Shown here: piece after piece, positions 584 to 62,926 of the stretch
Layout of the letters: each line of letters opens with the position of its first letter
How positions within the stretch are numbered: the first letter of the stretch is position 1
Assembly (NCBI GenBank): GCA_963816185.1
Contig: CAWFJJ010000028.1
Span: forward strand, 32,001 to 96,000
DNA length: 64,000 nt
Reading direction: 5' to 3'
From: Thermoanaerobaculia bacterium
Lineage (GTDB): Bacteria > Acidobacteriota > Thermoanaerobaculia > UBA5066
The notes under the pieces: model-generated
Told to the model about the DNA's origin: nothing
The model's database searches: none
The model's input: only the letters and a program-made list of their open reading frames with translations
Made by a program: the position numbers and the translations under genes

Positions 584-1945
584 CGGACGTTCTCAAGTTC
601 GGCGGCACCTCGGTCGGATCGGCCGAGCGGATCCGCGACGTCGCGCGCCTCGTGAAGACGCGCGGGGGAGACTCGAGCCTCGTCGTCGTCTCGGCGATGG
701 CCGGTGTGACGGATCTTCTGGTCGGATTGAAGAATTCTTCGAAGGGTAAAGAGCGGGGCGCCGCCGAGGCCACACTCGACGAGTTGGAAGGTCGCCACCG
801 CGCCGCGCTCGATGGGCTTGCCCTCCCGGAAAGCGAAAGGCGGACCTGCGCCCTCGCGATCGAAGAGGAGATGCGGCGATGCCGTGAGCTTTCTCTCGGA
901 ATCTCTCTACTCGAAGAAATCTCTCCTCGAACCTCGGACGCGCTCCTCGCGATCGGAGAATTGATCTGCTCGCGCTTCGTGGCCGCCGCGCTTCGCGCGG
1001 GCGGGGCGGAGGCCGTGTGGATCGACCCGCGCGAGATCCTCGCGACGAACGCCGCGCACGGCGCGGCCCTTGCGGACGAGAAGGAAACGGCCGCCCGCGT
1101 CTCCAGGCACGTGGCGCCTCACCTCGCGGCGGGGCGGGTCGTCGTGACGGGAGGCTTCGTCGGTGCCGCTCCGGACGGCTCGACGACGACGCTCGGCCGT
1201 GGCGGATCGGACTACTCGGCCGCGCTCTTCGGCGCCGCGCTCCATGACATGGGCCGCGCCGTGGGCCGCATCGAGATCTGGACCGACGTGGACGGAATCC
1301 TGACGGCCGACCCGCGCATCGTGCCCGCGGCGCGCCTCGTTCCCGAGGTGAGCTATCCCGAGGCGGCCGAGCTCGCGTTCTTCGGAGCGAAGGTGCTCCA
1401 TCCGGCGACGATCCGCCCTGCCGTGGCGCGAGGGATCCCGGTCGCCGTGAAGAACTCGTTCAGGCCCGATTGTCCCGGCACGATCGTGCGGCAGGACGTC
1501 GCCCGGAAACGGCGTGAGAGCCGTCGCGATGCGCACGGGGGTGACGGCGCTCTTCGTGGGCAGTCCGCGCATGCTGCTCGCCCATGGCTATGCCGCCAGG
1601 GTCTTCTCCGTCTTCGAAAAGCACGGCGTGCCGGTGGACGTCATCGCCACGAGCGAGGTGTCGATTTCGATCACCGTGGACGCGAAAGCCTTGCTCGAGG
1701 GCGTCGTGCGCGACCTTTCCGAGTTCGCCGAGGTCTCGGTTCTCCGGAACCTCGCGGTCGTGTCCGTCGTCGGAAAGGCTCTGCGCTCGACGGCGGGCGT
1801 CGCCGTGCGCATCTTCGGCGCCGTCGGCGACGTGAACGTCGTCCTCATCTCCCAGGGCGCCTCCGACACGAACGTGACGTTCGTGGTCGACGGGAACGAC
1901 GCGCCGGAGGCGCTGCGCAGGCTTCACCGGGAGTTCTTCGAATGA
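580..1945 (+). CDS. lysC: aspartate kinase (apparent frameshift near 1500)
   Basis: [37 protein letters not shown]; ACT domains continue in ORF 1514..1945. Confidence 0.92.
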
Positions 1946-2766
1946 AAGCGCTCCTCGTCGGATACGGGAAGATGGGGAAGACGATCGAGATCGCGCTCGT
2001 CCACAGGGGGCACGAAGTCGCTGGACGGTTGGGGCGCAAAGAGATTTGCTTAGAAGGGGAAGAGGGGAAGGGTGACCTATGGAGCGCGTCGAGCAATGCC
2101 GCGGATCCGGCTTCGCCGCAGCAGGCCAGCGAGAAGTCCTATTCACTTTCTGAGAAGTCTTTATCCTCGTCTCTCTCTTCGGACCTCCCGGTTTGCGACA
2201 TCGCGTTCGAGTTCACGACACCGGCGTCCGCGCCGATCGTCGTCCCCCTCCTTCTTTCGCGGAAGATCCCCGTCGTCTCCGGCACCACTGGCTGGGACGT
2301 GACTTCGGCCGTGCACATCGCACGGGAGCAGAAGGTTCCTTTTCTTCATTCCTCGAATTTCTCCCTCGGCGTCGCGGCGCTGCGGCGCGCCGTCGCCGCC
2401 GCGGCCGCCGCGCTCGCGCCGTTTCCCGAGTTCGAGCCGGGAGTCATGGAGCGGCATCACGCGGCGAAGAAAGACTCTCCTTCGGGGACGGCTCGCGTTC
2501 TCGCGCTCGACATCTCGCGCGAGCCCCTTTCGAAGAGATCCGTGCCGATCGTCTCTCTCAGGCAGGGCGGCCAGCCGGGAGAGCATTCGGTCTACTTCGA
2601 GGGCGCGGACGAGACGGTGGAGCTCGTGCACCGCGCCCGGTCGCGTTCGATCTTTGCCCAGGGCGCCGTGCGCGCCGCGGAATGGATGCTCGTATCGGGC
2701 CGAGCGGGCCCGGTGACCTTCGACGAATTCTTCGACGACCTGTCGCTCAAGGGGGGCGCCTCATGA
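1942..2766 (+). CDS. dapB: 4-hydroxy-tetrahydrodipicolinate reductase with an in-frame loop insertion
   Basis: GYGKMG, VSGTTGW, NFSLG, ERHHAAKKDSPSGTA, FAQGAVRAA; ATGA overlap with lysC. Confidence 0.93.
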   Translation: MKALLVGYGKMGKTIEIALVHRGHEVAGRLGRKEICLEGEEGKGDLWSASSNAADPASPQQASEKSYSLSEKSLSSSLSSDLPVCDIAFEFTTPASAPIVVPLLLSRKIPVVSGTTGWDVTSAVHIAREQKVPFLHSSNFSLGVAALRRAVAAAAAALAPFPEFEPGVMERHHAAKKDSPSGTARVLALDISREPLSKRSVPIVSLRQGGQPGEHSVYFEGADETVELVHRARSRSIFAQGAVRAAEWMLVSGRAGPVTFDEFFDDLSLKGGAS

Positions 2767-3731
2767 CGGCTTCCGCACACCCGCCGGACTCTTCGTCTTC
2801 AAGGAATCTCCGTCTTTCCGGGGTCTTCACCGCGCTCGTCACGCCGTTTCGCGACGACGGGGCCGTCGACGAGGCGGGCCTCCGCCGTCTCGCGAAGCGG
2901 CAGATCGCGGGCGGCGTCGCGGGTCTCGTCCCGTGCGGGACGACGGGCGAAGCCGTCACGCTGGACGCGGACGAGCACGAGCGTGTGGTCGCCGTCGTCG
3001 CCGAAGAGGCGCGCGCGTCCTCGCGGCGCGTGACCGTGATCGCCGGCTGCGGCTCGAACGACACCCGAAAATCCCAGGCCCTCGCCGAACGATGCCGCCG
3101 GGCCGGGGCCGACGCGCTCCTCGTCGTCACGCCTTACTACAACAAGCCGACGCCGAAAGGCCTCGTCGCGCATTTCCTCGCTGTCGCGGATGCGGGCCGG
3201 CTGCCGCTCGTCCTCTACAACGTGCCCGGCCGGACGGGCCTCAACATGCAGCCCGACACAGTGCTCGAGCTCGCGAAGGACCCCCGCATCGTGGCCGTCA
3301 AGGAGGCATCGGGCAGCCTCGATCAGGCATGCGAGATCCTCCGCGCCCGCCCGGCCGGATTCGCCGTCCTCTCGGGCGAGGACTCGCTCGCGATTCCGAT
3401 GATCGCCTGCGGCGCCGAGGGCGTCATCGCGGTGGTCTCGAACGAGGCTCCGGGCCTGTACGTGGACGCGATCGCCGCGGCCCTCGCCGGGAATCGCGCT
3501 CGTGCCTCGGAGCTCCAGGCGAGAATGTTCCCGCTCATGAAGGCGAATTTCCGCGAATCGAACCCGATTCCGGTGAAATGGGCGCTGGCGCGTCTCGGCC
3601 TCGTCGGCGGCGCTGTTCGCCTGCCGCTCGTGCCGCTTTCGCCGCAGCACCACGCCCCGCTCGAGGACGCGCTCCGGGCCGCGGGTCTCCTCGATGCCGC
3701 CGGGAAACCAGTCGAGAAGGCCGCGGCGTGA
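2763..3731 (+). CDS. dapA: 4-hydroxy-tetrahydrodipicolinate synthase
   Basis: TALVTPF, CGTTGE, VTPYYNKP, LYNVPGRTG, AVKEASG, ESNPIPVK. Confidence 0.95.
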   Translation: MTASAHPPDSSSSRNLRLSGVFTALVTPFRDDGAVDEAGLRRLAKRQIAGGVAGLVPCGTTGEAVTLDADEHERVVAVVAEEARASSRRVTVIAGCGSNDTRKSQALAERCRRAGADALLVVTPYYNKPTPKGLVAHFLAVADAGRLPLVLYNVPGRTGLNMQPDTVLELAKDPRIVAVKEASGSLDQACEILRARPAGFAVLSGEDSLAIPMIACGAEGVIAVVSNEAPGLYVDAIAAALAGNRARASELQARMFPLMKANFRESNPIPVKWALARLGLVGGAVRLPLVPLSPQHHAPLEDALRAAGLLDAAGKPVEKAAA

Positions 3732-4495
3732 CGCGCGAGGAAGTCGTCGCGCTTCTCGGCGCGCTCGAGCGCGGCGAGATGCGCGCGGCGGCCCCCGACG
3801 GGGACGGGAACTGGGTGGCGAACGCGGCCGTCAAGGAAGGCATCCTCGCGGCCTTCCGGCTCGGTGTCGAGGAGGCGAGCGAGGCCGGCCCGCTCCTTTT
3901 CCGCGACCGAGACACTCTCCCGCCGCGCCGTCCGCTTCCCGAAGGCGTGCGCGTCGTCCCGGGCGGGACGGCTCTCCGCCGCGGCGCCTTTCTCGCGAAG
4001 GGCGTCGTCGTGATGCCGCCCGCCTACGTGAACGTGGGCGCGTACGTCGACGAGGGCTCGATGATCGACAGCCATGCGCTCGTCGGCTCGTGCGCGCAGA
4101 TCGGGAAGAAAGTCCACCTTTCGGCCGCGGCGCAGGTGGGCGGCGTCCTCGAGCCCGTGGGCGCAGTTCCGGTCGTCATCGAGGACGAGGTCTTCGTGGG
4201 CGGGGGAGCCGGGATCTACGAGGGCGTCCGCGTGAGAAAGCGCGCCGTTCTCGCGGCGGGCGTCATCCTGACGGCTTCGAGCGTCGTCTTCGATCTCGTG
4301 AACGAGCGCGAGCTCCGCTCGGCGCCGGGGCGTCCGCTCGTCGTTCCCGAGGGCGCCGTCCTCGTCCCGGGCTCGCGGCGAGTCACCGGCGCCTGGGCCG
4401 AGGCCCGAGGGATCTCGCTTTCCGCTGCCGTGATCGTGAAGTATCGGGATGCGAAGACGGACGCGCGGACGGTTCTCGAAAGCGCGCTGCGGTGA
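3728..4495 (+). CDS. dapD: 2,3,4,5-tetrahydropyridine-2,6-dicarboxylate N-succinyltransferase
   Basis: RVVPGG, YVNVGAYVDEG, VGSCAQIG, GGVLEP hexapeptide repeats; GTGA overlap with dapA. Confidence 0.93.
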   Translation: MTREEVVALLGALERGEMRAAAPDGDGNWVANAAVKEGILAAFRLGVEEASEAGPLLFRDRDTLPPRRPLPEGVRVVPGGTALRRGAFLAKGVVVMPPAYVNVGAYVDEGSMIDSHALVGSCAQIGKKVHLSAAAQVGGVLEPVGAVPVVIEDEVFVGGGAGIYEGVRVRKRAVLAAGVILTASSVVFDLVNERELRSAPGRPLVVPEGAVLVPGSRRVTGAWAEARGISLSAAVIVKYRDAKTDARTVLESALR

Positions 4496-4553
4496 CGGGA
4501 AAAGAAGAAAGAGTTGCACGCGGCCTGCGGCCGCGTGATTCTTAGAAAGGTAA

Positions 4554-5843
4554 TTGGTCTTGGCGGACTCGCTGATCCGTCGCGCCGCGGCTCGGTTCGG
4601 GACTCCGCTGTATCTGTACGACTTCGAGGTCATCGCGGCGCGAGTCCGCGCGCTGCGCGCGGCGCTCGGCCCTCGATTCACGCTGGCCTACGCCGTAAAG
4701 GCAAACCCATCGCTAGCCGTGCTGTCGCTTTTCTTCGAAAGGGGGTTGGGGGCGGACGTCGCATCCCGAGGCGAGCTGCTCGCGGTGCGCCGCGCAGGAT
4801 GTCCTGCTTCGAAGATCCTCTCGACCGGTCCTGCGAAAACTGATGCGGACCTCGAAGCGCTCGTGCGAGCCGGCGTGTCGATCATCCATGCGGAAGGCGA
4901 ATGGGAGCTCGCCAGACTCGAAGAGATCGCGAAGCGCGCGCGACGCACCGTTCGCGTCGGCCTCCGGCTCAACCCGCCCTGGGGGATCGCCGAGAAGCGC
5001 GTCATAATCGGCGGCCCCGGCGCGAAGAAGTTCGGGTTCGACCTCCGGACCGCCGAGAGAGTTCTTAGAAAGTGGAAGAGCGGAGCGGGAGGGCCGGACG
5101 CCTACCCCCATCTGGATCTCTGCGGCTTTCAGGTGTTCAACGCCTCGAACGTCCTCGACGCGCGGCTCCTCGTCGAGAACACGCGCCACGTGCTCTCCCT
5201 CGCCCTTTCCCTTTCGAGGAAATACGACGTTTCTCTTCTCTCCGTGGATTTCGGCGGGGGCTTCGGCGTGCCCTATGCGGCGTCCGAAGAGCACCTCGAT
5301 CTAAGAGTTCTTAGAAGGGGTCTGGAGGAGATCGCGAGGCGCGTCGAGTTGGAGCCTCGGCTTCGGCGGGCTCGGCTGGTGTTCGAACCAGGCCGGTTCC
5401 TCGTTGCGGAGGCGGGGATGTACGTGACCCGCGTCCTCGGCACCAAGAGAAGCCGCGGCGTCGACTACGTCCTCATAGACGGTGGCGTCCACCACTTCCT
5501 CCGGCCGGTCCTCCTCGGAACGCCTCACCGCGTGAGGCTCGTCAGGAGAAAGGCAGGCGCTCGCGGCGGTCGATCTTCACCTTCTAGGAAATCTCTAGTT
5601 CTTTCGGGCCCCCTCTGCACGTCCCTCGACGTCCTCCACCCGTCCGCTGACCTGCCACTCCCGGTGCGGGGAGACCTCCTTGCCTTCGAGAACGCCGGCG
5701 CATACGGGTTCACCGAGTCGATGCCTCTCTTTCTCTCGCACGGGTGGCCGGCCGAGGTCGGCGTGTCGAAGGGCCGGCTGGCGCTCCTGAGGCGGCCTCC
5801 GACGGTGGAATCGCTTCTTCGCGCGCAAAGGCGGCGGCTTTGA
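4554..5843 (+). CDS. lysA: diaminopimelate decarboxylase (PLP fold III)
   Basis: TPLYLYD, YAVKAN (PLP Lys), DFGGG, FEPGR, GPLCT, AGAYG; last gene of the dap operon. Confidence 0.82.
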   Translation: MVLADSLIRRAAARFGTPLYLYDFEVIAARVRALRAALGPRFTLAYAVKANPSLAVLSLFFERGLGADVASRGELLAVRRAGCPASKILSTGPAKTDADLEALVRAGVSIIHAEGEWELARLEEIAKRARRTVRVGLRLNPPWGIAEKRVIIGGPGAKKFGFDLRTAERVLRKWKSGAGGPDAYPHLDLCGFQVFNASNVLDARLLVENTRHVLSLALSLSRKYDVSLLSVDFGGGFGVPYAASEEHLDLRVLRRGLEEIARRVELEPRLRRARLVFEPGRFLVAEAGMYVTRVLGTKRSRGVDYVLIDGGVHHFLRPVLLGTPHRVRLVRRKAGARGGRSSPSRKSLVLSGPLCTSLDVLHPSADLPLPVRGDLLAFENAGAYGFTESMPLFLSHGWPAEVGVSKGRLALLRRPPTVESLLRAQRRRL

Positions 5844-7381: not shown

Positions 7382-7395
7382 AATACAATGTGCGA

Positions 7396-9120: not shown

Positions 9121-9250
9121 GAAGAGAGACCGAAGAAAAGACTTCTTAGAAAGGTGGAGCGGACGGCCCGGCGGTCCGAACTGGCGCTGCAGCATCCGAC
9201 GGCCGCGCTCTCGAGGTCCATTCACTTCTAAGAAGATCCTCTTCGAACCT
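9121..9250. repeat. intergenic convergent motif pair
   Basis: purine tract 9121-9140, TTCTTAGAAAGGTGG at 9143, CATTCACTTCTAAGAA ending 9234. Confidence 0.7.
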
Positions 9251-9310
9251 TCCGCTGAGCGTCGCCATTCCGAAGGGGTGTCCCGGCCCGGATCTTGCGA
9301 GGTAGACTGC

Positions 9311-11296: not shown

Positions 11297-11997
11297 GGAG
11301 AACCCGTCCAATTCGGGTTGGCGGGTCGGCCCTCGTCTCAGTTTTTTTTTGCTTAGGAGGTGGATGCGGCAGCGGGCGGCCCGCGAAATCCGAAGCGCCA
11401 TCTCCCGGTGCGTCGGTGGTGGAGGCATATGAGAGGGCGCGTGCAACGGCGTGGGATCCCGCGCGCCGCTTCAAAGCGCTCTTCAAGGCTGAGGTCTCGC
11501 GGAACGTCGGCGCGATTTTGCGAGGCTACCTCTCCGTCTGGTGGAACGGCGCAGCCAGCACGCTCACCTGGCGGTCTTCGGCACCTCTTGCCGGGAGAGG
11601 GAGAGGGGGACTTCTTAGAAAAGGGACGAGGGGCGAGGAGGAAAGCGATGGCGGAGCGCCTGGATCGCGCCAGTCGTTGCTCCCCGGTCGGTTTGTTTCG
11701 GACGACATCCTCATGTGCATTCTCGGCGTTCCCGAGGCCGCGCTCTCTTCCTCTTCACCATTCGAAGAAACTCCGAGAGGCTTTCGGCTGCGCATCGGGG
11801 GCTCGAAGCGCTTCGTCCTCGTGAACCGTGAGGGAAAGCCGATCGAGTTCTCTTTCCCGAACGGCGAGACGGTGAAGGTTCAGCCGGGGGAAGGCGTGCC
11901 GCGCCGAATCGAGGCGAACGGCCCGGAAGGCCGTGCCGTCCTCACGCTCGAAACCTATTCGTCCTGGCCCGAGGGCGAGCGGGTTCCCCCGGCATGA
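11293..11997 (+). CDS. putative lipoprotein in the lolB position
   Basis: basic N-terminus, hydrophobic stretch and LGGGC lipobox-like site; overlaps both neighbours by 4 nt. Confidence 0.6.
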   Translation: MRRTRPIRVGGSALVSVFFCLGGGCGSGRPAKSEAPSPGASVVEAYERARATAWDPARRFKALFKAEVSRNVGAILRGYLSVWWNGAASTLTWRSSAPLAGRGRGGLLRKGTRGEEESDGGAPGSRQSLLPGRFVSDDILMCILGVPEAALSSSSPFEETPRGFRLRIGGSKRFVLVNREGKPIEFSFPNGETVKVQPGEGVPRRIEANGPEGRAVLTLETYSSWPEGERVPPA

Positions 11998-12924
11998 GCG
12001 AGACCGGAAGGGCGCTGACCGTCGAGGCGTTCGCGAAGGTGAACCGCTCGCTGCGCAGTGCTGGGTAAGCGTCCAGACGGCTTTCACGAGCTCGACACGA
12101 TCTTTCAGACGGTGGATCTCACCGACAGGTTGTATTTCTTAGAAGGTGAAGAGAGCGGAAGAGCGACGGGCCACGTCTCGCTGACGGTGGAGGGCGTCGA
12201 TCTTCCCGCAGACTCCAGCAATCTCATTCTCCGCGCCGCTGACGCGCTGCGCGTGCGCTTCTCGGTGCGCCTCGGCGCCCGTATTCACCTTTCTAAGAAG
12301 ATCCCCTTGGGCGGTGGCCTTGGCGGAGGCAGTTCGAACGCGGCTGCGGCGCTGAGGGGCCTGGTCGCGCTCTGGAAGCTGCCCGCGACCGAAGCCGATC
12401 TGCACGCCGTGGCAGCCTCCCTCGGGTCCGACGTGCCTTTCTTTCTGATCGGCGGCCGAGCGCGAGGCACGGGGCGCGGCGAAATTCTGGAGCCTCTTCC
12501 GGACGGCCCCGAGGAGTGGCTCATCCTCGCCTTTCCATCGTTTTCTCTTTCCACGGCAGCGGTTTACGGGGCAGTTTCCGTCCCTGCGTTGACAGATTCC
12601 GTCGCCCAAACTAACCTTGGCGGTTCCGGATCCGGTGGCGGGCCGGATCGGAACGACCTGGAGCCGGCGGCGGAATCCCTCCGTGGAGAGCTGCGCAGGC
12701 TTCGTCTGGCCCTGTCGGACTTCGGCGCGACGAGCGCACGCCTGTCCGGGAGCGGCTCGACGGTGTTCGGGGTATTCGGCGACGAAAGAAACGCCCGGCG
12801 CGCCTTCGAAGGGCTCGCTGGGGTTCGGAAAGAAGTGATGGCGACGATGACGATCGTGAAGACCGTGTCGAAGGCGGCGTTCGTGCGCCGGGCGATGCCC
12901 TCGGACAGGGTGCAACGCGGATGA
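11994..12924 (+). CDS. ispE: 4-diphosphocytidyl-2-C-methyl-D-erythritol kinase (apparent frameshift near 12057)
   Basis: AFAKVN from ATG 11994, then GKRPDGFHEL, KIPLGGGLGGGSSNAA, LGSDVPFF, LSGSGST. Confidence 0.93.
12589..12617 (+). promoter_or_regulatory. sigma70-type promoter inside ispE, probably driving tRNA-Gln/prs
   Basis: TTGACA 12589-12594, 17-bp spacer, TAACCT 12612-12617. Confidence 0.6.
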
Positions 12925-12961
12925 TCTCCGCCTGCGCGAGAATCCACGCGGGACTTCCGGA

Positions 12962-13036
12962 TGGGGAGTCGACAAGTGGTAAGTCAGCGGTCTTTGGAAC
13001 CGCCATTCGGAGGTTCGAATCCTCCCTCCCCAGCCA
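12962..13036 (+). tRNA. tRNA-Gln(TTG)
   Basis: TGGGGAG/CTCCCCA acceptor stem, anticodon arm GCGGT-CTTTGGA-ACCGC, GGTTCGAATCC, encoded CCA. Confidence 0.96.
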
Positions 13037-15517: not shown

Positions 15518-15519
15518 AC

Positions 15520-19562: not shown

Positions 19563-22124
19563 ATGAAGTTGGGCCCCTACGAGATTCTCGCGCCTCTCGG
19601 GTCTGGCGGGATGGGAGAGGTCTACCGGGCGAAAGACCCGAGGCTCGCGAGAGATGTCGCGGTAAAGGTACTGCCGAGAGATTTCTTAGAAGGTGAAGAG
19701 AGGAAAGAACGCTTCGAGAGGGAAGCGAGGCTGCTTGCGGCGCTGAATCACCCGGGCATCGCTGCCATCTATTCATTCGAAGAAATCCCCGGTTCTCCCG
19801 GCTCCTCGGCAGTTCACGTTCTTACGATGGAGCTTCTCGAGGGGGAAACGCTCCGTGCGCGCCTCGCGTCCGGGCCGCTCCCCTTACGCAAGGCAGTGGA
19901 CTTCGCTGTCCAGATCGCCCGGGCTCTAGCTGCCGCGCACGAGAAGGGCGTTGTCCACCGGGACCTCAAGCCCGAGAACCTCTTCGTGACGAGGGACGGC
20001 CGGATCAAGATCCTCGACTTCGGCCTCGCGAAGTCCGTCGAAAAAGGTGCCGGATCCGGCGGCACGAACCTGCCGACTATGTCGAAAGGCACAGAGCCGG
20101 GCGCGGTCCTCGGGACGCTCGGCTACATGTCGCCCGAGCAGCTCCGCGGTCTGCCGACGGACCACCGGACCGACCTCTTCAGTTTCGGCGCCGTCCTGTA
20201 CGAGATGCTCTCCGGGCGCAAGGCGTTCCGGGGCGACACGGCGGCCGACACGGTCTCGGCGATCCTGCGCGAGGAGCCGCAGGACCTCTCAGCGACGAAT
20301 CGGACGATCCCGCCGGCCCTCGAGCGCATCGTGCGTCACTGCCTCGAGAAGAGCCCGGACGAGAGGGCACATTCCGCGCACGATCTCGCGTTCGACCTCG
20401 AGTCCCTTTCGACGGCGTCCTCGGGCGCCGTGCCGGCCTCCGTTCCCCGGATTGCGGTCCGCCGGCCGCGGGCGGGCCAGATCCTCGCGGCCGCGGCGTG
20501 CGTCGCCGCGGGCGTCGTCGCCGGCCGGCTTCTCTGGAAAACAGCCGCGCCGGCCCCACCGACGTTTCACCGGCTCACGTTCCGGCGCGGGAACGTCCTC
20601 TCGGCGCGCTTCGCTCCGGACGGGCGGACGATCGTTTACGGTGCGGCCTGGGGAGGCAATCCGTCCGAGATCTACACGGTTCGGACGGAGGGACCCGAGT
20701 CGCGGCCGCTCGGCCTTCCGAACGCGACGGTCGCTTCAGTGTCGTCGACGGGCGAGCTCGCAATGTTCTCGCGCGAGGGGATGACGACGATGGGGGCTTG
20801 GGCCACGCTCTCTCGCGTGCCACTCGCGGGCGGCGCTCCGAGGCCGCTCCTCGAGGAGGTCGGCGCGGCCGACTGGACGCCCGACGGCAAGGAGCTCGCC
20901 GTCATGCGGGTCCGCGAGGGGGGAGGGCGCCGCCTCGAGCTCCCAGCGGGCAAGACGCTCTTCGAGACGAAAAAGAGAACGGAGGGGCTGCGCGTCTCGC
21001 CGGACGGCAAGCACGTCGCAATCGCGGAAGTGGACGGCGAGAAGACTTCGCTCGTCGTCGTGGACCTCGCCGGCAAGGCCCGCACGGTCGTCGGACCCTT
21101 GCAGGTCCTCGTGGGGACGTTCGCGTGGCTTCCGTCGGGGCGCGAGATCCTGTTCTACGGCGGCGCCTCCCGCGACGACACCGCCCTGCGCGCCGTCGAC
21201 CTTTCCGGACGCGTGCGCACGCTCTATCGGTCCACCGGGGTCCTCTTCGTGCACGACGTGTTCCCGGACGGGCGGGTGCTCGTCGAGCACGCGATGAGCC
21301 TCCGGGGCCTCATGTTCGCGCGCGCCTCGGACGGGCAGGAGACGGACCTCTCGTGGTTCGACTCCTCGAATGTCGCGGACGTCTCCATCGGGGGGAAGGC
21401 CCTCCTTTTCAACGAAGAGGGCGAGGCGACGGGCGGGACGCCGCGCGCGTTCTTCCGGAGGACGGACGGCTCGCCGGCCGTGCGGATCGGCGACGGCGCC
21501 GGGCTCGCTCTCTCACCGGACGCGAGCCGCGCGCTCGTGCGGGAAGGCGACGGCGTCGCGGTCGTCCCCGTGGGAGCCGGCACGCCGCAGCGTCTCGCGC
21601 TCGGGCCCGTCGCGGACGTGACGGGCGCGACGTTCTTCGCCGACGGAAAGAGGATCCTTCTCTACGGTTCCGAGAAGGGGAAGGGCCCTCGGTTCTGGAT
21701 CGTCGAGCCGCCTGCCGAACCGCGCGCGGTCACGCCCGAGAACACGCTGGGCGCCGCGGGTCTCCTGTCACCCGACGGCCTGAGGGTCGTCGTGTGGTCC
21801 GCGGACACGTCCATCCTCTCGATCCTTCCGCTCGGCGGCGGGCCAGCGGTCGCGCTCGCGGGCACCGAGCACGACGACCCGATCGCTTGGACGCCGGACG
21901 GACGGGGGCTGTACGTGAGGCCAGGAGGCGGAGAGTCCGGCCGGATCGAGATCCTCGACGTGACCACGCGGACCCGCAAGCCCTGGAAAATTCTCGCCCC
22001 GCCGGACCCGGCGAGCGTCTCGGAGATCTCATCGGGCGCGTTCGCCCGCGACGGCTCGGCGTACGCATACACGTATCGGCGCGTCCTGACGTCGGACCTC
22101 TACGTCGTCGAGGGCCTGAAGTGA
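19563..22124 (+). CDS. Ser/Thr protein kinase with TM and WD40/PD40-like beta-propeller
   Basis: LGSGGMGEVY, VAVK, HRDLKPEN, DFGLAK, YMSPEQ; repeated xPDG motifs. Confidence 0.95.
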   Translation: MKLGPYEILAPLGSGGMGEVYRAKDPRLARDVAVKVLPRDFLEGEERKERFEREARLLAALNHPGIAAIYSFEEIPGSPGSSAVHVLTMELLEGETLRARLASGPLPLRKAVDFAVQIARALAAAHEKGVVHRDLKPENLFVTRDGRIKILDFGLAKSVEKGAGSGGTNLPTMSKGTEPGAVLGTLGYMSPEQLRGLPTDHRTDLFSFGAVLYEMLSGRKAFRGDTAADTVSAILREEPQDLSATNRTIPPALERIVRHCLEKSPDERAHSAHDLAFDLESLSTASSGAVPASVPRIAVRRPRAGQILAAAACVAAGVVAGRLLWKTAAPAPPTFHRLTFRRGNVLSARFAPDGRTIVYGAAWGGNPSEIYTVRTEGPESRPLGLPNATVASVSSTGELAMFSREGMTTMGAWATLSRVPLAGGAPRPLLEEVGAADWTPDGKELAVMRVREGGGRRLELPAGKTLFETKKRTEGLRVSPDGKHVAIAEVDGEKTSLVVVDLAGKARTVVGPLQVLVGTFAWLPSGREILFYGGASRDDTALRAVDLSGRVRTLYRSTGVLFVHDVFPDGRVLVEHAMSLRGLMFARASDGQETDLSWFDSSNVADVSIGGKALLFNEEGEATGGTPRAFFRRTDGSPAVRIGDGAGLALSPDASRALVREGDGVAVVPVGAGTPQRLALGPVADVTGATFFADGKRILLYGSEKGKGPRFWIVEPPAEPRAVTPENTLGAAGLLSPDGLRVVVWSADTSILSILPLGGGPAVALAGTEHDDPIAWTPDGRGLYVRPGGGESGRIEILDVTTRTRKPWKILAPPDPASVSEISSGAFARDGSAYAYTYRRVLTSDLYVVEGLK

Positions 22125-38795: not shown

Positions 38796-40418
38796 TTGAA
38801 AGAGGCTTCCGGTTCCCTTCGGATCCCCGTCCTTCTCGCCGCGGCGGCGGCTCTGATCTACATGGTCGCCGCGGTGGGGCGCGACTTCTGGGCGCCCGAC
38901 GAGCCTGATTTCGCCGAGCAGGTGCGCGAGATGCTCGAGCGAAAGAGCGTTCTCCTGCCGTATCAGAACGGAAAGCCGTACTCGGAGAAGCCGATCTTCT
39001 TCTACTGGGCGGTGGCGGCGACGACGCCGCTCTCCGGGGGCGACGTGAGGCCCTTCGCGACGCGCCTGCCGTCGGTTCTCGCCGGCGCGGCCCTCGTTTT
39101 TTGCGCCGCGGCTTTCGCGGGCAGGCGCGGGGGAGACCGCGAGGCCCTCGTCGCGGGCGCGGCGACCGCCGTCGCGCCGATCGTCTTCTGGCAGGGACAG
39201 TTCCTTCAGGTCGACGCTCTCTTTTCCTGTTTGCTGATGCTCAGTCTGGTTTCGGTGTTTTTCTTAGAAGGTGAAGAGAGGCACGGCACGCGCTGGCTCT
39301 GGGCGCTGCGTTTTTCGATCGCGCTCGCCGTGCTGACCAAGGGCCCGCTGGCGATCGTCTTGGTGGGATTGGTCGTCCTCTCCCGCTGCGCGATGGCCAG
39401 GTCCTTGCGGCTCCTTGGCCGTCTGCAACCCATTCGAAGCATCCTCGTCTTTCTTCTCCTCGTGGTCCCCTGGTACTACCTTGCGGCGCGCGCCGGCGGC
39501 CCGACGTACGCCTACGACCTCGTCGTGAATCAGAACTGGAACCGCTTTTTCCGGGCCTTCGACCACATCCAGCCGTGGTGGTTCTATCTCGAGAGCATCT
39601 GGAGCGACTTCTTCCCGTGGACGGCGCTCGCGCTCGGAGCGCCCTTCGTGCTCGCCCGCGCGGGCCTCCTTCGCGAGCGGCCGGAGCTGCGGTTCGCCGT
39701 GACCGCCGCCGCGGTGATCTTCGTGTTCCTCTCCGTTTCGCAGTCCAAGCAGGGCAAGTACCTGCTCCCCGCTTATCCGTTCGCGGCGGTTCTCGTGGCG
39801 GCGCTCGCGGCGGAAGCGGAACGCAAAGCCGCGACGGGCGGAGGCGGCCTGCTCCGGGCCGTGCGCGCCTGGATCGCGCTCGCCGCGATCGTCCTCTTCG
39901 TCGGGGCGATCGCGCTCGCACCGGCCGTGCACCGGTTCGCGGCCGAACAGGCAGGCCTCGTGCCGTTCGCCGCGATTCCGATCGGCCTCGGGGCCGCCGC
40001 GACGCTCGTCATCCTGGCCGGGCGGCGGCTTGAAATAGTCCCCGCGATGCTCGCTCTCGCCGCGACTCTCGCGGCGGGGGAGGTCGCGGCGGGCGCCGTG
40101 GTATTCCCGGCGATCGATACCCTGAAGACGGGAAGGCCCTTTTACGAGCGCCTGCGTCCGCTTGTTTCACACGGCGAGCCCCTCGCCTACTTCGGAGACA
40201 CGTACCGCTGCTATCCGATCCTCGTTCTCCGGCGGAAGACCGAGCACTTCAGGAGCGACGCCGCGCTCGCGGAATGGATCGAGAGAACCCCCGGAGCCCT
40301 CGTGCTCGTGGACGAGAGCGAGCGGAGGCACTGGAGGGACGGCCGTCTCTCGCGACTCGTCGTCCTGGACCGGCAGCGGGTGGGCGGCGACGAGGCGCTG
40401 CTCCTGGGACGGCCATGA
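38796..40418 (+). CDS. ArnT/PMT-like (GT-C) glycosyltransferase
   Basis: DEPDF, EKPIFFYW, RLPS, LTKGP, K.GKYLLP. Confidence 0.88.
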   Translation: MKEASGSLRIPVLLAAAAALIYMVAAVGRDFWAPDEPDFAEQVREMLERKSVLLPYQNGKPYSEKPIFFYWAVAATTPLSGGDVRPFATRLPSVLAGAALVFCAAAFAGRRGGDREALVAGAATAVAPIVFWQGQFLQVDALFSCLLMLSLVSVFFLEGEERHGTRWLWALRFSIALAVLTKGPLAIVLVGLVVLSRCAMARSLRLLGRLQPIRSILVFLLLVVPWYYLAARAGGPTYAYDLVVNQNWNRFFRAFDHIQPWWFYLESIWSDFFPWTALALGAPFVLARAGLLRERPELRFAVTAAAVIFVFLSVSQSKQGKYLLPAYPFAAVLVAALAAEAERKAATGGGGLLRAVRAWIALAAIVLFVGAIALAPAVHRFAAEQAGLVPFAAIPIGLGAAATLVILAGRRLEIVPAMLALAATLAAGEVAAGAVVFPAIDTLKTGRPFYERLRPLVSHGEPLAYFGDTYRCYPILVLRRKTEHFRSDAALAEWIERTPGALVLVDESERRHWRDGRLSRLVVLDRQRVGGDEALLLGRP

Positions 40419-44898: not shown

Positions 44899-46496
44899 CC
44901 TTCGAGCCCGGCCATCAGGCGTCCGAGCGTGGCAAGGGGCGTCGCGGGCTCGAGAGAACCCGACAGTCCGCCGCGGTAGACGACGCGAATCGGCGCGCCG
45001 AAGAGCTGCGCTTCGTCCGGATCCGCCGTGACGACGAGGGCGGCGGTCCCGGAGCGGCAGGCGTCGAGGATCCGGCTTCTGACGGCGGCAGCGGAAGCGA
45101 GATCGAGGCCCCGCGTCGGATGGACGGCGACGAGAAGCCCGGGACGGAGCGCGAGCTCGCGCGCGAGAACGGCCTTCTGCTGGTTCCCGCCCGAGAGGGA
45201 GCCCGCCGGGGCGTCGGAAGAGGAGTAGCGAACGCCGAACGCGCTCAGCCGCGCCTCGGCAAGCGCACGCATCGCCGTGCGGTCGAGGAAGATCCTGCCG
45301 GGAGGATTCGGGAGCGCGAGATTCTCCTCGAGGGACAGCGCCGCGACGAGGCCTTCCTCACGCCGGTCCGCAGGCACGAAGGCCCCGCCCGCGGCGCGAA
45401 ACGCGAGCGGGTCGCCCGAGGACGGCAGCGGGACGCCGCCGACCTCGACGCGTCCCGAGAAGGGCTCGAGTCCCGCGATCGCACGGGCGATCGTGTCTGC
45501 GCCGTTCCCGTCGATCGCGAGGAGGACGAGAAGCTCGCCGGAGGAGAGGGAAAGAGAAACTCTTTCTGCTCGGACTCTTCGCGCCTGCTCTGGTGCGAAG
45601 CCGGTGAGCGCGAGGCCCGGGAAATACGGCCCTTGGCCGGAGCGGTCCTCGAGCGGCACGCTGCCCTCTTCACCTTCTAAAGGATCTTTCTCTTTCTCTT
45701 CTTCTTTCCCTGTTATGAAGCCCTCCGCGTTCGCAAGCAGAAGTCCCCCGATCTCCTGCGGCGTCGTCTCGCTCGTTCGGCAGGTCTTGACCGACCGCCC
45801 CCGGGCGAGGAGCGTGAGCCGGTCGGCGCCCGCGAAGACCTCGGCGAGGCGGTGCGTGATGAGGACGACGGCGGCGCCGGCGCCGACGCGTTTTCTGAGG
45901 GACGCGAAGAGCGCCGCCGTTTCGTCGGGAGAAAGGACAGCCGTCGGCTCGTCGAGGATGAGGATGGCCGGGTCGCCGGCGAGCGCACCCGCGATCTCGA
46001 TGCGCTGGCGCGTTCCGACGGGCAACGCGTCGGCGCGGGCGTCCGCATCGCCGAGCTCGAGCCCGAACGCCTGCCCGAGGCGTGCGACACGGGCGCGCCG
46101 CGACGCGGCGGATTCGAAGAGAGGCGCCGCGGGATCGAGGAACGCGAGATTGTCGGCGACGCTCGCCGCACCGATCAGGAGATCGTGCTGCGGCACGAGA
46201 ACGAGCCCGGCGTGGCGGGCGTCGCGAGCGCCGCGAAACGACACGGGTGATCCGGCTCGCAAGATCTCGCCCGAATCGGCCACGAGCCTCCCCGCGGCGA
46301 TCGACACGAGGGTGGATTTCCCCGCGCCGTTCTCGCCGAGGAGGGCGTGGATTTCGCCGGGGAAGACGACGAGATCTGCTTCGGAAAGAGCCTGGGTGTC
46401 GCCGAAGCGCTTCGAGATGCGGCGGAGCTCGAGAGACGGGAGAGAAGACGAAGACGGAGACGAAGAGGAAGATTTCTTAGAAGGGTGTGCGGGCAT
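44895..46496 (-). CDS. double-domain sugar/nucleoside ABC ATP-binding protein (start may be 46541)
   Basis: LLGENGAGKST, ILDEPT, LSGGNQQK, PTRGLD. Confidence 0.92.
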   Translation of the reverse strand: MPAHPSKKSSSSSPSSSSLPSLELRRISKRFGDTQALSEADLVVFPGEIHALLGENGAGKSTLVSIAAGRLVADSGEILRAGSPVSFRGARDARHAGLVLVPQHDLLIGAASVADNLAFLDPAAPLFESAASRRARVARLGQAFGLELGDADARADALPVGTRQRIEIAGALAGDPAILILDEPTAVLSPDETAALFASLRKRVGAGAAVVLITHRLAEVFAGADRLTLLARGRSVKTCRTSETTPQEIGGLLLANAEGFITGKEEEKEKDPLEGEEGSVPLEDRSGQGPYFPGLALTGFAPEQARRVRAERVSLSLSSGELLVLLAIDGNGADTIARAIAGLEPFSGRVEVGGVPLPSSGDPLAFRAAGGAFVPADRREEGLVAALSLEENLALPNPPGRIFLDRTAMRALAEARLSAFGVRYSSSDAPAGSLSGGNQQKAVLARELALRPGLLVAVHPTRGLDLASAAAVRSRILDACRSGTAALVVTADPDEAQLFGAPIRVVYRGGLSGSLEPATPLATLGRLMAGLEG

Positions 46497-46600
46497 CTGC
46501 GCAAGGGAACCGCCCCAGCCGCGCCTGTGGGCAGAGCCCATTCACCCTTCTAAGAATCTTCGCGCCGAAGGCGCGCGGTCTTCTCTTCGGATGTTCTTTC
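46441..46600. repeat. convergent motif pair with perfect 14-bp inverted repeat and adjacent hairpin
   Basis: TTCTTAGAAGGGTG 46474-46487 / CACCCTTCTAAGAA 46543-46556; CGCGCCGAAGGCGCG 46561-46575. Confidence 0.75.
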
Positions 46601-46606
46601 GCTGTC

Positions 46607-47587: not shown

Positions 47588-47622
47588 GTCTCGATTATGC
47601 CGTCGAGACCTATGATCGAAAG

Positions 47623-48225
47623 GTGTCGCTCCATCTCGACGCGGCGGCCCGTAAGAGCATCCTCGACTTCGTCCGGCCTCTCTCCGTCGGGATCGACGGC
47701 GTCACGAACTTCGGCTTCGTGGAGAGGAGGCTGAGGATTTCGGACTTCTTAGAAGGTGAAGAGGGAAGGGGCGATGTGGCGGGAGAGGCTGGAGCGGATC
47801 CGGCGCGCCTCTTTCTCCTGGGCGCTTTCGCCGGCCTCCCATCGGCTCGGCGCATCACACCCGACGGCCGCGAGGCTCTGCTCCTGCGCTCTCTGCATAT
47901 TCCATTCGAAGAAATCTCTTCTCTTTCTCTTTCTCTCTCCCGCCTCGAGTCTTCGCCTGAATCGCCCGAAGAGAGAATCGTCCACGACGCGATGCTCCTC
48001 GAATCCGTCGGCGCGTACGGAGTCACGCAGCTTCTCGTCGCCGGGGCGCGCGAGCGGATGACGCTCGCCGAGATGGCGCAGGAGATCGAGGAGAAGATGG
48101 AATCGGCGCGGTTCGCGACGGAGGCCGGCCGGCGCCTCGCGGCCGATCGCGTCGCCTTCGCGACCCAGTTCGCGCGGAAGCTCGCCGAGGAGGCGCGGGA
48201 GTTCGAGCCCGTCGCACCGGGTTGA
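47623..48225 (+). CDS. degenerate HD-domain-like protein
   Basis: IVHDAMLLESVGAYG and FATEAGRRLAADR resemble the C-terminal half of HD hydrolases; HD motif absent. Confidence 0.5.
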   Translation: MSLHLDAAARKSILDFVRPLSVGIDGVTNFGFVERRLRISDFLEGEEGRGDVAGEAGADPARLFLLGAFAGLPSARRITPDGREALLLRSLHIPFEEISSLSLSLSRLESSPESPEERIVHDAMLLESVGAYGVTQLLVAGARERMTLAEMAQEIEEKMESARFATEAGRRLAADRVAFATQFARKLAEEAREFEPVAPG

Positions 48226-48236
48226 CCTCCAGGGGC

Positions 48237-49033
48237 TCACTCCCCGCCCGGCGTCGATCTCCCTGCATCCACGGTGACGACCTGGCCGGTCATCGACCGG
48301 TTCTCGAGCACGACGATCGCCATGGCGGTGAGGTCTTCGACGTTCACTTTGCGTGCGAGAGGCGTCCTGGCGACGAGGGCCGCGACCGCCTCGGCGCTCA
48401 TCTCCGCGGGCGGCAGGACGACTCCCGGGGCGAGCGCGTTCACCCGCACCTCGGGGCCGAGGGCGACGGCGAGGTTGCGCACGAGAGCGTTGATCGCCGC
48501 CTTGGCGGCCGAGTGCGGGATGTGCGACGGCCACGCCTGCGTCGCCGCGACGTCGGAGATGAAGAGGATCGATCCCTGCGCGGCGCGGAGCGCCGGCAGA
48601 GCAGCCTGCGCGAGGAAGAATGCGGCGCGGGGGCCGGCGCGAAAAACCGCCTCCCAGTCGGCGAGGCGACACGGAAGAGAAGGGCTTCGGGATCCACGGA
48701 GACGCGGCGTGAACGAGGGCATCGAGGCGGGGGGAAGAGCGCGAGAGATGCGGCGAAGAGGAAGAGAGAAGAGAGACGAAGAGAAGATTTCTTCGAATAG
48801 TTTGTGCGGCGCGTCGTCAGTGGCGAGATCGACGTGGAAGGCTTCGGCGCGGATGCCCTCTTTCCTTCTAAGAAGAATTTCCACCGCCGGCCTGCCGCTT
48901 CGGCACGGCTCGTGTAGGAAGTCAGAGCGATCGAATAGCCCTCGTCTGCCAACGCCTTCGCGAACTCGAAGCCGAGCCGCTTCGCCCCGCCCGTGACGAG
49001 GGCGACCTTCGCGGCGTTCCTCGCGTCCGTCAC
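48237..49033 (-). CDS. SDR oxidoreductase, pteridine-reductase-like (about three apparent frameshifts)
   Basis: VALVTGGAKRLG, RLDALVHAAS (third frame), SAAKAA, VRVNALAPG, TGQVVTVDAG. Confidence 0.78.
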
Positions 49034-55860: not shown

Positions 55861-55887
55861 GGCACCGTCACAGTGCGGGACGCGCGG

Positions 55888-57570: not shown

Positions 57571-57711
57571 GGTGCCTCTACGTTATCCCACTTGCCTCGG
57601 CATTCGTGATCCCGGGAGACGCGCTCCCTGTCATTTGCATCAGGGAGTTGCCCTACGGAACGTGGCACGATCAATCTGGCGGGAACCGAGTTCCCGGCAG
57701 CGGGGGCAATT

Positions 57712-62003: not shown

Positions 62004-62055
62004 CCCCTTCCGAGCGAGGACCCCTGCGCCGTACGAGCCTGCCGTTTGAGCTCGC

Positions 62056-62104
62056 TTGACACGGGCGTGGGCGCGGCCTAGGCTACTGAGTGATGGCTCA
62101 TTCA
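62056..62104 (+). promoter_or_regulatory. sigma70 promoter plus FadR(YsiA)-type operator over the TetR start
   Basis: TTGACA 62056, 17 bp, TAGGCT 62079; TGAGTGATGGCTCATTCA 62087-62104. Confidence 0.72.
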
Positions 62105-62926
62105 GCGGGTCGCGACGGGCTTCCCGAGTCGGCTCTCGCGGCGTCGGACGAGGAACGCGCTCCCGTCGGTGCAGACCCCGAAAAGCGCCGGCGCATTCTC
62201 GAGGCCGCCGTGCGGACGTTCGGCCGGCGCGGGTTCCACGAGGCCCGTATCGCCGAGATCGCGGCCGCGGCAAAGGTGGCCGAGGGCACCGTCTACCTCT
62301 ATTTCCGCAACAAGGAAGATCTCCTGGGCGTCGTGTTCGACGAGTCGATGGACGGGGTTCTCGAGAAGGGCCGCGCGCTGGCTCGGTCGAAGGCGCCCGC
62401 CGGCGAGCGGCTCACGGCGCTCGTGGACCTCCATCTCCAGTTCATCGGCTCGGACCGCGACCTTGCGTCGGTCTTCCAGATCGAGCTCAGGCGTAGCGCC
62501 CGGCTCGTCGAGCGCTTTTCGCGGAGCAAGCTCGTCGAGTATTTCCGCCTCCTCGGCAGCGTCCTGCGTGACGGCATCGCGCGCGGGGAGTTCCGCCGCG
62601 GCCTCGACCCCCGTCTCGCCGTGCGCATTCTCTTCGGCGCCGCCGACGAGATCCTCTCGGAGTGGCTGCTGTCGGGAGACAAGAAGCCGATCGCGGACGC
62701 ACGTCAACTGGTCGGGACGCTTCTCGACGGGTTCGCTGGAGAGGGACAAAGGGAATCTGCTTCGAAAGGGAAGACGGCGGCGGGCGGGCCCCGTACGCGC
62801 CGAGGAACGCAGCAGTTTTCCGCCGCGCGCCTCCGGAATTCACCCTTCGAAGTACGCGCCGAAGGCGCGAACAACGGTACGAAGCACGGCAAGGTGGCCT
62901 CAATGCGCAGGAGTAAACCCCAGTGA
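62093..62926 (+). CDS. TetR-family regulator, FadR/YsiA-like, with low-complexity C-terminal tail
   Basis: IAAAAKVAEGTVYLYFRNKEDL; QIELR; upstream of a thiolase. Confidence 0.9.
   Translation: MAHSAGRDGLPESALAASDEERAPVGADPEKRRRILEAAVRTFGRRGFHEARIAEIAAAAKVAEGTVYLYFRNKEDLLGVVFDESMDGVLEKGRALARSKAPAGERLTALVDLHLQFIGSDRDLASVFQIELRRSARLVERFSRSKLVEYFRLLGSVLRDGIARGEFRRGLDPRLAVRILFGAADEILSEWLLSGDKKPIADARQLVGTLLDGFAGEGQRESASKGKTAAGGPRTRRGTQQFSAARLRNSPFEVRAEGANNGTKHGKVASMRRSKPQ

Follow-up and report, generated by a model that had tools for sequence, protein, structure and literature searches.

BIMEs combine copies of a short motif in inverse orientation, separated by variable linkers; a genome has hundreds of them, and they are regarded as protein-binding sites. 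DUS/USS and the cyanobacterial HIP1 are clade-specific words that are over-represented in coding and noncoding DNA and kept at synonymous sites, and they act singly. Intragenic invertons have inverted repeats inside coding sequences. RPEs, as described in PMC10969869, are short palindromic elements of one clade that are located between genes as well as in frame in unrelated housekeeping genes, in which translation turns them into extra loops, and they are conserved at orthologous sites.

The elements described here, from a 5.09-Mb Thermoanaerobaculia MAG (G000; 94.9% complete) of a soil bacterium, have two inward-facing arms around an interior of 40–250 bp that differs from copy to copy. There are ~15 copies in the 64-kb window (the whole stretch of DNA that was analyzed) and roughly 260–350 pairs in the whole genome. 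They work like BIMEs in that motif copies are inversely oriented and linkers vary. Unlike REPs and REPINs, however, no RAYT accompanies the motif, the arm itself is not a GC-rich stem-loop, and ~40% of copies are genic. A domesticated REPIN/RPE-like element had been proposed from the sequence alone; the RPE half of that proposal is compatible with the data, whereas a REPIN is not supported, as RAYT/Y1 (PF01797) has no match in G000 and is present in only 4 of 29 genus genomes, all 29 of which have the motif, and 106 of 258 pairs are inside genes. An in-frame segment in dapB (+44 aa) behaves like an RPE, but copies in ispE, kinase, and aspartokinase genes do not. RPE families share a whole sequence and a conserved peptide, whereas here the arms alone are shared, interiors are unrelated, every frame is used to read the arms, and in several pairs both the codons under the arms and the interior are native; the host belongs to an acidobacterial class and not to Rickettsia. 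Inverted ends, a size of <300 bp, high copy number, an intergenic excess, nesting, and presence/absence among relatives are all reminiscent of MITEs and Correia elements, but the interior is not shared, near-identical copies at different loci are lacking, a clear target-site duplication is not seen (the one junction compared is ambiguous over 2 nt, TT), no autonomous IS with similar ends was found, and the arms within the 3.7 kb scanned contain no sigma-70-like promoter. In contrast to DUS/USS and HIP1, an inward-facing partner at 40–300 bp is the rule. Unlike in invertons, one repeat sequence is present at hundreds of loci, essential genes included, and interiors are collinear in the alignments seen.

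An Oriented Motif in Inward-Facing Pairs

The 18-mer TTCTTAGAAGGTGAAGAG has four exact copies in the window (12136, 19683, 39261, and 47746; chance expectation 0.01), at the positions given in an earlier, sequence-only reading, and its near-reverse copies are confirmed on the minus strand at 5573–5590 (2 mismatches) and 45666–45683 (3 mismatches). That reading's count of 14 exact cores (TTCTWAGAA), and its estimate that 0.03 are expected, were reproduced; 0 of 100 shuffles reached 14. Genome-wide there are 337 exact cores, compared to 0–2 for shuffled 9-mers, and site density is ~1 per 7 kb. A logo of the 337 sites extends to the genome the outer flanks reported for the window, which are purine-rich (GA) on the left and pyrimidine-rich (CT) on the right. 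The arm is a motif of ~25–30 bp in which a purine tract is followed by WT-TTCTT[A/C/T]GAA-RG-KGAA-RRGG. Because positions 4–5 (TT) and the one-sided GG-KGAA give it an orientation, the suggestion of a symmetric TTC-N3-GAA dimer site did not hold.

All 13 pairs that had been listed exist, several with degenerate partners as stated (those near 910, 39433, and 62846 score <14 bits with the 33-nt matrix used to score arms), and convergent pairing is a property of the genome. Among 381 strong F sites, 275 converge with a partner 50–250 bp away and only 5 have a divergent one; for exact cores, a convergent partner scoring at least 8 bits accompanies 277 of 336 sites. In all, ~80% of sites have an inward-facing partner at 40–300 bp and outward-facing pairs are almost absent. 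Spacing is free above a minimum of ~65 bp. No 10.5-bp phasing of spacing was found (Rayleigh power 0.39); phasing is what rigid looping would predict. Interiors are unrelated, with 193 components among 246 pairs in an all-against-all BLAST, the largest cluster (14) being kinase paralogues. No interior is common to copies at different loci, except for a separate "cargo" repeat and duplicated contigs. Interiors are also unstructured (mean fold z of −0.01 in genic copies, control −0.17; −0.49 in nongenic copies, control −0.15).

Locations and Inheritance of Copies

Copies in the window, in order, are:
735..918, aspartokinase pair; F core TTCTTCGAA at 735, R core at 910 degenerate (CTCGAAGAA)
2047..2156, dapB pair, within the gene; degenerate core TTCTGAGAA at 2148
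4539..4547, + strand, solo F arm with an exact core and no partner, just upstream of a lysA-like decarboxylase ORF
5062..5221, first decarboxylase pair, inside the Orn/DAP decarboxylase (lysA-like) gene; core TTCGAGGAA at 5213
5308..5590, second decarboxylase pair, within the same lysA-like gene; the R arm at 5582 is the near-reverse copy first reported at 5574
9143..9234, intergenic pair; both cores exact
11350..11358, + strand, relic in which the F arm stands alone; TGCTTAGGA
11612..11769, pair upstream of ispE, where no gene has Pfam support; core TTCGAAGAA at 11761
12136..12299, ispE pair, on native codons; F arm reads D-FLEGEE, R arm IHLSKKI
19683..19784, Ser/Thr kinase pair, codons native, located between VAVK and the beta4-5 region; core TTCGAAGAA at 19776
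39261..39441, PMT/ArnT-like glycosyltransferase pair; exact 18-mer F arm, weak R-like partner CCCATTCGAAGCATC
45666..45683, − strand, R arm in the linker of a two-domain ABC ATPase; F arm (~45560) degenerate
46474..46556, intergenic pair, between the genes for Bmp and the ABC ATPase; extended GA-rich and CT-rich tracts outside it
47746..47913, pair upstream of the Bmp gene; core TTCGAAGAA at 47905; covering ORF 47575–48225 without a Pfam match
48789..48874, pair where no gene is called (gene model approximate); F core TTCTTCGAA, R core exact
62758..62854, TetR pair, at the 3′ end of the gene and extending into the spacer

Pfam supports the gene names ispE (GHMP kinase), Ser/Thr kinase, and PMT/ArnT-like that had been given from sequence but not "HD-like"; since ORF 47575–48225 matched no Pfam family, the 47746 site may be intergenic. 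Rfam found only two tRNAs in the window. A small GC hairpin is located at 46560–46578, right after the 46474..46556 pair.

The claim that the motif is written into unrelated genes is half right. It applies to ispE, the kinases, and aspartokinase, where arms are on native codons. The interior of the aspartokinase pair is native aspartokinase sequence and its F arm is retained in four of four aligned relatives; the place and 93-bp core-to-core spacing of the kinase pair are repeated in ~14–15 paralogues; and the glycosyltransferase F arm (39261) is identical in four of four relatives. It does not apply to dapB, in which the pair belongs to a 132-bp in-frame extra segment (~2048–2179, 44 aa) that relatives G003 and G011 are without. 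Extra residues number 44 in G000, 41 and 34 in two relatives, and 0 to 4 in three others; G000, G007, and a relative at 69% identity carry the segment, another retains a remnant of 4 aa, and two lack it. Its junction offers the sole clean comparison of filled and empty sites and has the 2-nt TT ambiguity, and other empty sites resemble deletions with differing ends.

Other copies also vary among relatives. The 9143..9234 pair is in G011 and not in G003, and G007 has a different palindrome in its place. The 46474..46556 pair is in G007, G017, and G014; in G003 and G011 it is missing and the two genes adjoin directly. The ABC ATPase linker element has lost its R arm in G003 and has a nested extra palindrome in G007; likewise, only the F arm of the TetR pair is retained in G003 and an extra F copy is nested in it in G007. 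At 11350, the relic is explained by a 66-bp deletion in G000 because G007, G011, and G014 keep the interior and R arm.

The motif is present in 29 of 29 genomes searched of genus g1 (G000 and 28 of 28 relatives) and, at low copy, in six of eight of a second genus, g11, but in 0 of 26 genomes of eight other genera and 0 of 12 of two other families. Where position 5 is C in G000, relatives have C in 20 of 28 cases, compared to 29% genome-wide, and where it is A, relatives have A in 39 of 53. The elements are older than the genus radiation and have been inherited vertically, locus by locus, without homogenization between loci. Losses are deletions that leave solo arms or small remnants.

Selection on Arms in Genes

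Approximately 40% of elements (106 of 258 pairs) are inside called genes and translated, some as in-frame extra loops and others superimposed on native codons, and there is a 4- to 8-fold excess outside genes. The 3,063 coding sequences that were called contain 128 exact cores, a strong enrichment over the codon-preserving control named in the sequence-only reading (mean of 2.8 and maximum of 6 in 20 shuffles that preserved protein and per-gene codon usage). GC3 is 0.383 in genic arms and 0.844 for genes. A/T third positions are conserved at 0.84, 0.71, 0.80, and 0.68 in arms (G007, G003, G011, and G014, respectively) versus 0.52, 0.52, 0.49, and 0.32 in the same genes outside arms (p of 7e-10 to 6.5e-4). 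In the ispE arms of 14 genus orthologues, GGT is kept in 12 and GAA and CTT are kept in all 14; neither arm is present in seven aligned outgroup orthologues. Genic arms force rare A/T-ending codons that are held by purifying selection and, as had been claimed, selection acts on the nucleic acid and not the peptide, given the several frames, the low GC3, and the conserved third positions. Nongenic arms are no better conserved than other nongenic DNA (0.80/0.87, 0.81/0.86, 0.84/0.84, and 0.74/0.75), a comparison that includes uncalled genes, covers alignable DNA only, and shows no selection.

Explanations for the Paired Arms

Our preferred reading, which we hold tentatively, is that these are ancient elements with transposon-like ends and that the arms are paired recognition sites for a putative DNA-binding protein. 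Partners match the consensus independently, face inward only, are freely spaced above ~65 bp, and show no selection for pairing, which argues that an arm is a site in duplex DNA and not a hairpin. Each arm would be recognized by a clade-specific, sequence-specific protein that engages two inward-facing sites, as a transposase does on its ends or a bridging nucleoid protein does on two sites. The likeliest history would be that of an old element family resembling MITEs or RPEs, whose ends may be kept, or re-created in place, because they are of use to the host or to an end-binding protein that was domesticated. The options of protein-bound paired sites and of a domesticated RPE-like element had been offered separately; both are compatible with the data and are combined here. 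A gene with a profile matching the motif had been named as a thing to look for; no RAYT, matching IS, or histone (histone fold in 0 of 63 genomes) tracks it, which counts against this reading, as do the unphased spacing and the ordinary conservation of nongenic arms. A bolder version, possible but doubtful, is that the arms are a host-maintained "bracket" signal in which a putative clade protein reads inward-facing pairs approximately every 14 kb, valuable enough to be written over native codons of essential genes, at a cost in rare codons, and to have been retained from a time that precedes the diversification of the genus. Such a sequence-specific system for marking or organizing chromosomes, made from transposon ends, would be of a new kind.

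It is conceivable, though we think it unlikely, that the elements are decaying, selfish, and MITE/RPE-like, with no host function. One old burst would have been followed by drift of interiors to saturation, and arms would only seem conserved. The in-frame dapB segment that is present, reduced, or absent among relatives fits such decay, as do other presence/absence differences and solo arms, nested insertions, the excess outside genes, and the ordinary conservation of nongenic arms; RPEs are also in frame in many genes (PMC10969869). However, A/T third positions of genic arms are kept far above background, and ispE, kinases, aspartokinase, and the glycosyltransferase carry arms on codons of their own, with no inserted interior. 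Nor do different loci have a common interior, the "cargo" repeat and duplicated contigs excepted. Random decay to solo arms would give divergent and convergent pairs in equal numbers and is disfavored because the counts are 5 and 275. No autonomous parent was found either: there is no transposase inside six long pairs, TnpB was not found, the IS630-like transposase is sporadic (2 of 28 genomes in the genus and 0 of 8 in g11), the arm core is absent from the IS630-like and IS4/5-like loci inspected, and arm-like inverted repeats are lacking there as well as at the third IS locus inspected, an rve-type copy.

Less can be said for arms that pair in RNA or single-stranded DNA as a long-range stem, marking transcripts for processing or stabilization, a role that we regard as improbable. 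Arms are complementary by consensus, and since any two arms that fit it are complementary by default, a stem keeps a small probability. The element at 46430–46600 folds at −86.7 kcal/mol (z = −6.8), whereas a second element that was folded has z = −1.0. There is a precedent in Correia elements, whose paired ends are substrates of RNase III (PMC10969869). Nevertheless, compensatory change is evident at no arm position. Identity between partner arms equals that between shuffled partners at every position (all |z| < 1.7; 0.851 vs. 0.846 in the core), and partners are not associated at polymorphic position 5 (A/C; Fisher p = 0.60). Of 187 A/C pairs, 74 have a mismatch at the center of the core, and the variable pair position in ispE is Watson–Crick in only 4 of 14 orthologues. 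In 91 genic pairs, G.U-type mismatches on the sense strand number 264 against 257 of A.C-type (p = 0.79). Divergent pairs would pair equally well, yet are nearly absent. Long-range RNA stems, another early suggestion, are therefore disfavored by the lack of covariation, the lack of a sense-strand G.U excess, and the unstructured interiors.

Two further explanations are very unlikely. Arms could be inverted recombination sites and interiors invertible segments, as in intergenic and intragenic invertons; only inverted pairs exist and a minimum spacing of ~65 bp would suit synapsis, but inversion would destroy the products of the essential genes that have many of the pairs (ispE, dapB, and aspartokinase), and interiors are collinear in every orthologous alignment seen. 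Nor is any invertase known to have several hundred sites. Alternatively, bias in uptake or repair could maintain the motif as an over-represented signal word, as with DUS/USS or HIP1. It is clade-specific, occurs in coding and noncoding DNA and in several frames, and is conserved at orthologous places. However, an inward-facing partner is present for most sites (277 of 336 with exact cores), locus-specific variants are inherited rather than driven to consensus, and uptake sequences are denser than the sites found here. An assembly or adapter artefact has a negligible probability, and certainly not one assembly is responsible, because the motif is in 28 of 28 other genus genomes, it is found at orthologous positions, and Logan contigs of other, public soil runs cover pairs 735/910, 2047/2148, 5308/5582, and 12136/12291.

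Implications

With only ends shared, no co-variation, and some interiors that are native gene segments, this type of element fits no definition of a MITE, REP, or RPE. Its genic copies are a natural case of a DNA-level signal that overrides codon choice inside conserved enzymes and is sustained across a genus. The arms account for odd clusters of rare codons and for low-complexity loops of 30–45 residues in proteins of these MAGs, and they can be used as clade markers in soil metagenomes. If a protein that reads the arms exists, the elements would be a case study in the conversion of transposon ends to host sites and would show how the chromosome is marked or folded in an acidobacterial lineage that is uncultured.

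Motif Shape and Pairing

The sequence-only reading drew attention to an AT-rich core, TTCTWAGAA, recurring in unrelated genes, and its counts hold. The window (G000:C28:32001-96000) contains 14 cores against 0.03 expected, and the 18-mer, an extended arm word, occurs exactly at 12136, 19683, 39261, and 47746 (expected 0.01); two imperfect matches, at 5573 and 45666, are on the minus strand. Across the entire G000 assembly (5.09 Mb, 30 contigs, 67% GC) there are 165 + 172 exact cores, and shuffled 9-mers matched in composition occur 0–2 times (n = 8). Core density in the window is approximately threefold the genome average. A logo of 337 exact-core sites confirms a purine-rich tract on the outer side of the core (positions −20 to −3) and gives the arm, 5' to 3', as the purine tract, W, T, core, G/A, G (92%), G/T, G, A, A, and further purines. 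In arms found as partners of exact cores, and hence not selected on their own core, the consensus is TTCTT, then A (58%), C (29%), or T (10%), then GAARG. Invariant positions of the arm are C3, G7, A8, and A9 of the core and the G at +10. The proposed symmetric TTC-N3-GAA site is replaced by a directional motif because positions 4–5 and a one-sided GG-KGAA give it direction.

Inward-facing pairing is a genome-wide property. With F (left-arm) sites defined by a 33-nt matrix at >18 bits over all of G000, 275 of 381 have an inward-facing partner at 50–250 bp and five have an outward-facing partner in the same range. With exact cores as the starting point (n = 336), an inward-facing partner scoring ≥8 bits lies 40–300 bp away in 277 cases. 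Arm spacing has its onset at ∼65 bp, a maximum at 74–78 bp, and a tail to ∼250 bp; kinase paralogues account for a sharp peak at 93 bp, and no 10.5-bp helical phasing is seen in spacing among G000 pairs. Sequences enclosed by the arms are unrelated, with 246 pairs falling into 193 similarity components. A likeness to the R (right) arm spanning the tail of the 16S rRNA gene and the start of the spacer (TCACC...TTTCTAAGGGATCTC, 11.4 bits; G000 C1:445546) is probably a coincidence; no F-like partner is present upstream of that 16S gene.

Distribution and Candidate Partner Genes

The motif, searched as a 15-mer, is present in all 28 other genomes of the genus (9–96 copies each) and in six of eight genomes of a second genus (1–12 copies). 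Searches elsewhere in the family (26 genomes, eight genera) and in two more families of the order (12 genomes) gave no copies; the latter tally includes unpublished genomes G019 and G024 and holds without both. Full-text searches of the literature (main text of papers), by core and extensions and by Thermoanaerobaculia combined with repeat terms, gave no description of the element among the matches listed; those to the core concern eukaryotic STAT sites, primers, and similar subjects.

The elements resemble RPEs and MITEs in being clade specific, palindromic, partly in frame within genes, and lost by deletion, but differ from both in having no shared full-length sequence and no parent IS among the candidates examined. 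In the single clean comparison of a filled with an empty site (dapB), the junction is ambiguous over TT and gives no clear target-site duplication. RPE and Correia properties used for comparison are those in text excerpted from PMC10969869. Unlike REPINs, the elements have no accompanying RAYT, and the REPIN reading is not upheld: a Y1/RAYT gene is absent from G000 and present in four of 29 genomes of the genus. The suggested histone-fold partner protein is found in none of 63 genomes, and a search for TnpB did not find one. Long-range pairs were considered as containers of a parent IS, but six such pairs contain ordinary genes. IS630-like (one gene), IS4/5-like (one gene), and rve (several; one inspected for its ends) genes were rejected as parents, their ends being unrelated to the arms; the IS630-like gene, present in two of 28 genomes of the genus, also does not track the motif as a partner would.

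Genic Copies and Selection on DNA

Pairs lie inside genes in 106 of 258 cases and the remainder are intergenic, both before gene starts and after gene stops, these fractions being approximate because gene calls are from a home-made codon-score model covering 75% of the genome. Numbers of pairs in intergenic classes are proportional to class size. Genic copies are of two kinds. In one, arms lie over native codons: those of a Ser/Thr kinase read DFLEGEE and YSFEEI and flank the canonical RFxREA...LNHP block, those of aspartokinase bracket a native helical segment, and those of ispE bracket a segment matching outgroup IspE residue for residue. The 18-mer in a glycosyltransferase translates as FFLEGEE amid membrane-protein sequence. 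In the other kind, arms belong to extra in-frame segments. That of dapB is 132 bp (44 aa), with CLEGEE at its start and a Ser-rich tail at its end, and is exactly absent from the relatives G003 and G011; it is 41 aa in G007, 34 aa in a relative at 69% identity, and a 4-aa remnant in another. Similar variable segments are in an ABC ATPase linker and a TetR C-terminus.

The lysine-pathway cluster (aspartokinase, dapB, and a lysA-like gene; window 735–5590) has four pairs and one solo arm in <6 kb. A single open frame (10–2766) joins aspartokinase and dapB to the last part of asd. At window 1501, one base is missing in contigs of all four public runs compared, and a one-base assembly error probably masks the aspartokinase stop.

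The claim that selection acts on the nucleic acid is borne out within genes. In a codon-preserving shuffle of 3,063 called genes, 128 cores were observed versus 2.8 in shuffled sequences (maximum of 6), and a looser core word gave 215 versus 15.2 after synonymous shuffling. GC content at third positions is 0.383 in genic arms and 0.844 in genes. Identity of A/T third positions in arms between G000 and relatives G007, G003, G011, and G014 is 84%, 71%, 80%, and 68%, respectively, versus 52%, 52%, 49%, and 32% for A/T third positions elsewhere in the same genes (p = 6.5e-4 to 1e-11). In ispE, rare arm codons GGT, GAA, ATT, and CTT are retained in 12–14 of 14 genus orthologues at a protein identity of 68–85%. 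Seven aligned outgroup orthologues have different codons and residues at these places, a result that holds without the one from unpublished G024 (locus L026). This alignment excludes partial matches (L014 and L016), loci with stops (L023 and L036, in G006), and short outgroup matches (L030 and L032–L035). At the place of the R arm, with the G039 locus left out, native sequence is already R-arm-like in a neighbouring genus and in an outgroup of the same family. Judging from these alignments, the ispE R arm is refined from similar native sequence and not written from nothing.

Outside of genes, arms are no more conserved than other alignable non-genic DNA, a weak control that is approximate because of the same gene model and its 75% coverage, and selection there is unsupported. 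This is in line with pure decay of selfish elements, an explanation that we regard as possible but doubtful; A/T third positions in genic arms are, as described, held well beyond control levels.

History of Copies

Synteny with G007, G003, G011, and G014 is good and nearly all arms of the window are at matching places in relatives. Where position 5 is C in G000, it is C in relatives in 20 of 28 cases (C is 29% genome-wide). Locus-specific variants are thus inherited, and copies are not homogenised by gene conversion. As read from aligned genomes, differences between relatives are mostly losses. Element 46474 is missing in G003 and G011, in which the flanking genes abut, and present in G007, G017, and the distant G014. 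Element 9143 is missing in G003, and 62758 is reduced there to its F arm. At 11350, G000 has an F arm alone and three relatives have a complete element. Interiors have diverged beyond alignment between flanking genes that are 77–88% identical.

Other small palindromes are inserted within elements of G007. They are ∼140–155 bp, have GGA/TCC-rich ends, and occupy, or are nested in, element sites corresponding to window 9143 and 45617; similar words are in G000 (C14:41799 and C24:143315). A cargo repeat of ∼85 nt is common to four pairs that are otherwise unrelated in arms and spacers (L070–L073; G000 C8:138260, C28:224900, C24:466790, and C25:196180). It holds internal inverted words CGCGCGTG/CACGCGCG, has sub-threshold chance matches alone in Rfam, and may represent another small mobile element with a preference for sites between arms.

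Immediately after the R arm, two elements of the window have a small GC hairpin closed by a GAAG loop (GCGCC-GAAG-GCGC; 46560–46578 and 62856–62872). Relatives have different sequence at these places, with self-complementarity retained; G000 has 16 exact copies, few adjoining arms. An insertion of 2.4 kb is present in G007 and G011 at the place between window 7381 and 7396. It carries a Ser/Thr kinase gene with a kinase-type arm pair, and an R arm shortly precedes the start of the next gene; of this R arm, G000 retains the last bases alone. Two apparent recent transpositions of elements were instead duplicated contigs. Stretches of ∼500 bp in contigs C13 versus C30 and C14 versus C24 are 96–97% identical, including a 34-bp indel in an element interior, and redundant contigs from strain variants are apparently present in the G000 MAG.

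Mode of Recognition

Arms could pair as RNA stems, as had been suggested, and the fold of element 46430–46600 is very stable (z = −6.8); that of element 9110–9265 is unremarkable (z = −1.0). Across pairs, however, interiors show no extra folding (mean z of −0.01 genic and −0.49 non-genic; −0.17 and −0.15 in matched random segments). Core identity is 0.851 between true partners versus 0.846 ± 0.004 between arms from different pairs, flanks are equal, and every per-position |z| is <1.7. Similarity of partner arms does not exceed that of arms from different pairs, and therefore each arm matches the consensus independently. Combinations at position 5 (A/A 95, C/C 18, mixed 74; Fisher p = 0.60) and sense-RNA mismatches in 91 genic pairs (G.U 264 vs. 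A.C 257; p = 0.79) likewise show no sign of selection for a stem. In ispE, the sole variable position expected to pair is Watson–Crick in four of 14 orthologues. We consider RNA stems improbable. An Rfam search of the window returned two tRNAs and nothing else, no RNA run was among the public runs listed as covering window 4500–13000, and no sigma-70-like promoters are in arms within 45500–49200.

Invertons are very improbable; none of 10 joints listed in Logan contigs is at an arm, in contigs where rare inversion or excision variants are invisible. Equally slim is the chance that the arms are uptake-like words, against which the inward-facing pairs speak.

We tentatively prefer that arms are candidate sites for a sequence-specific factor that requires two facing sites. 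They may be read in duplex DNA by such a factor because they are mutually independent, exclusively inward facing, and held at A/T third positions in essential genes. The factor would bind two inward-facing arms as duplex DNA.
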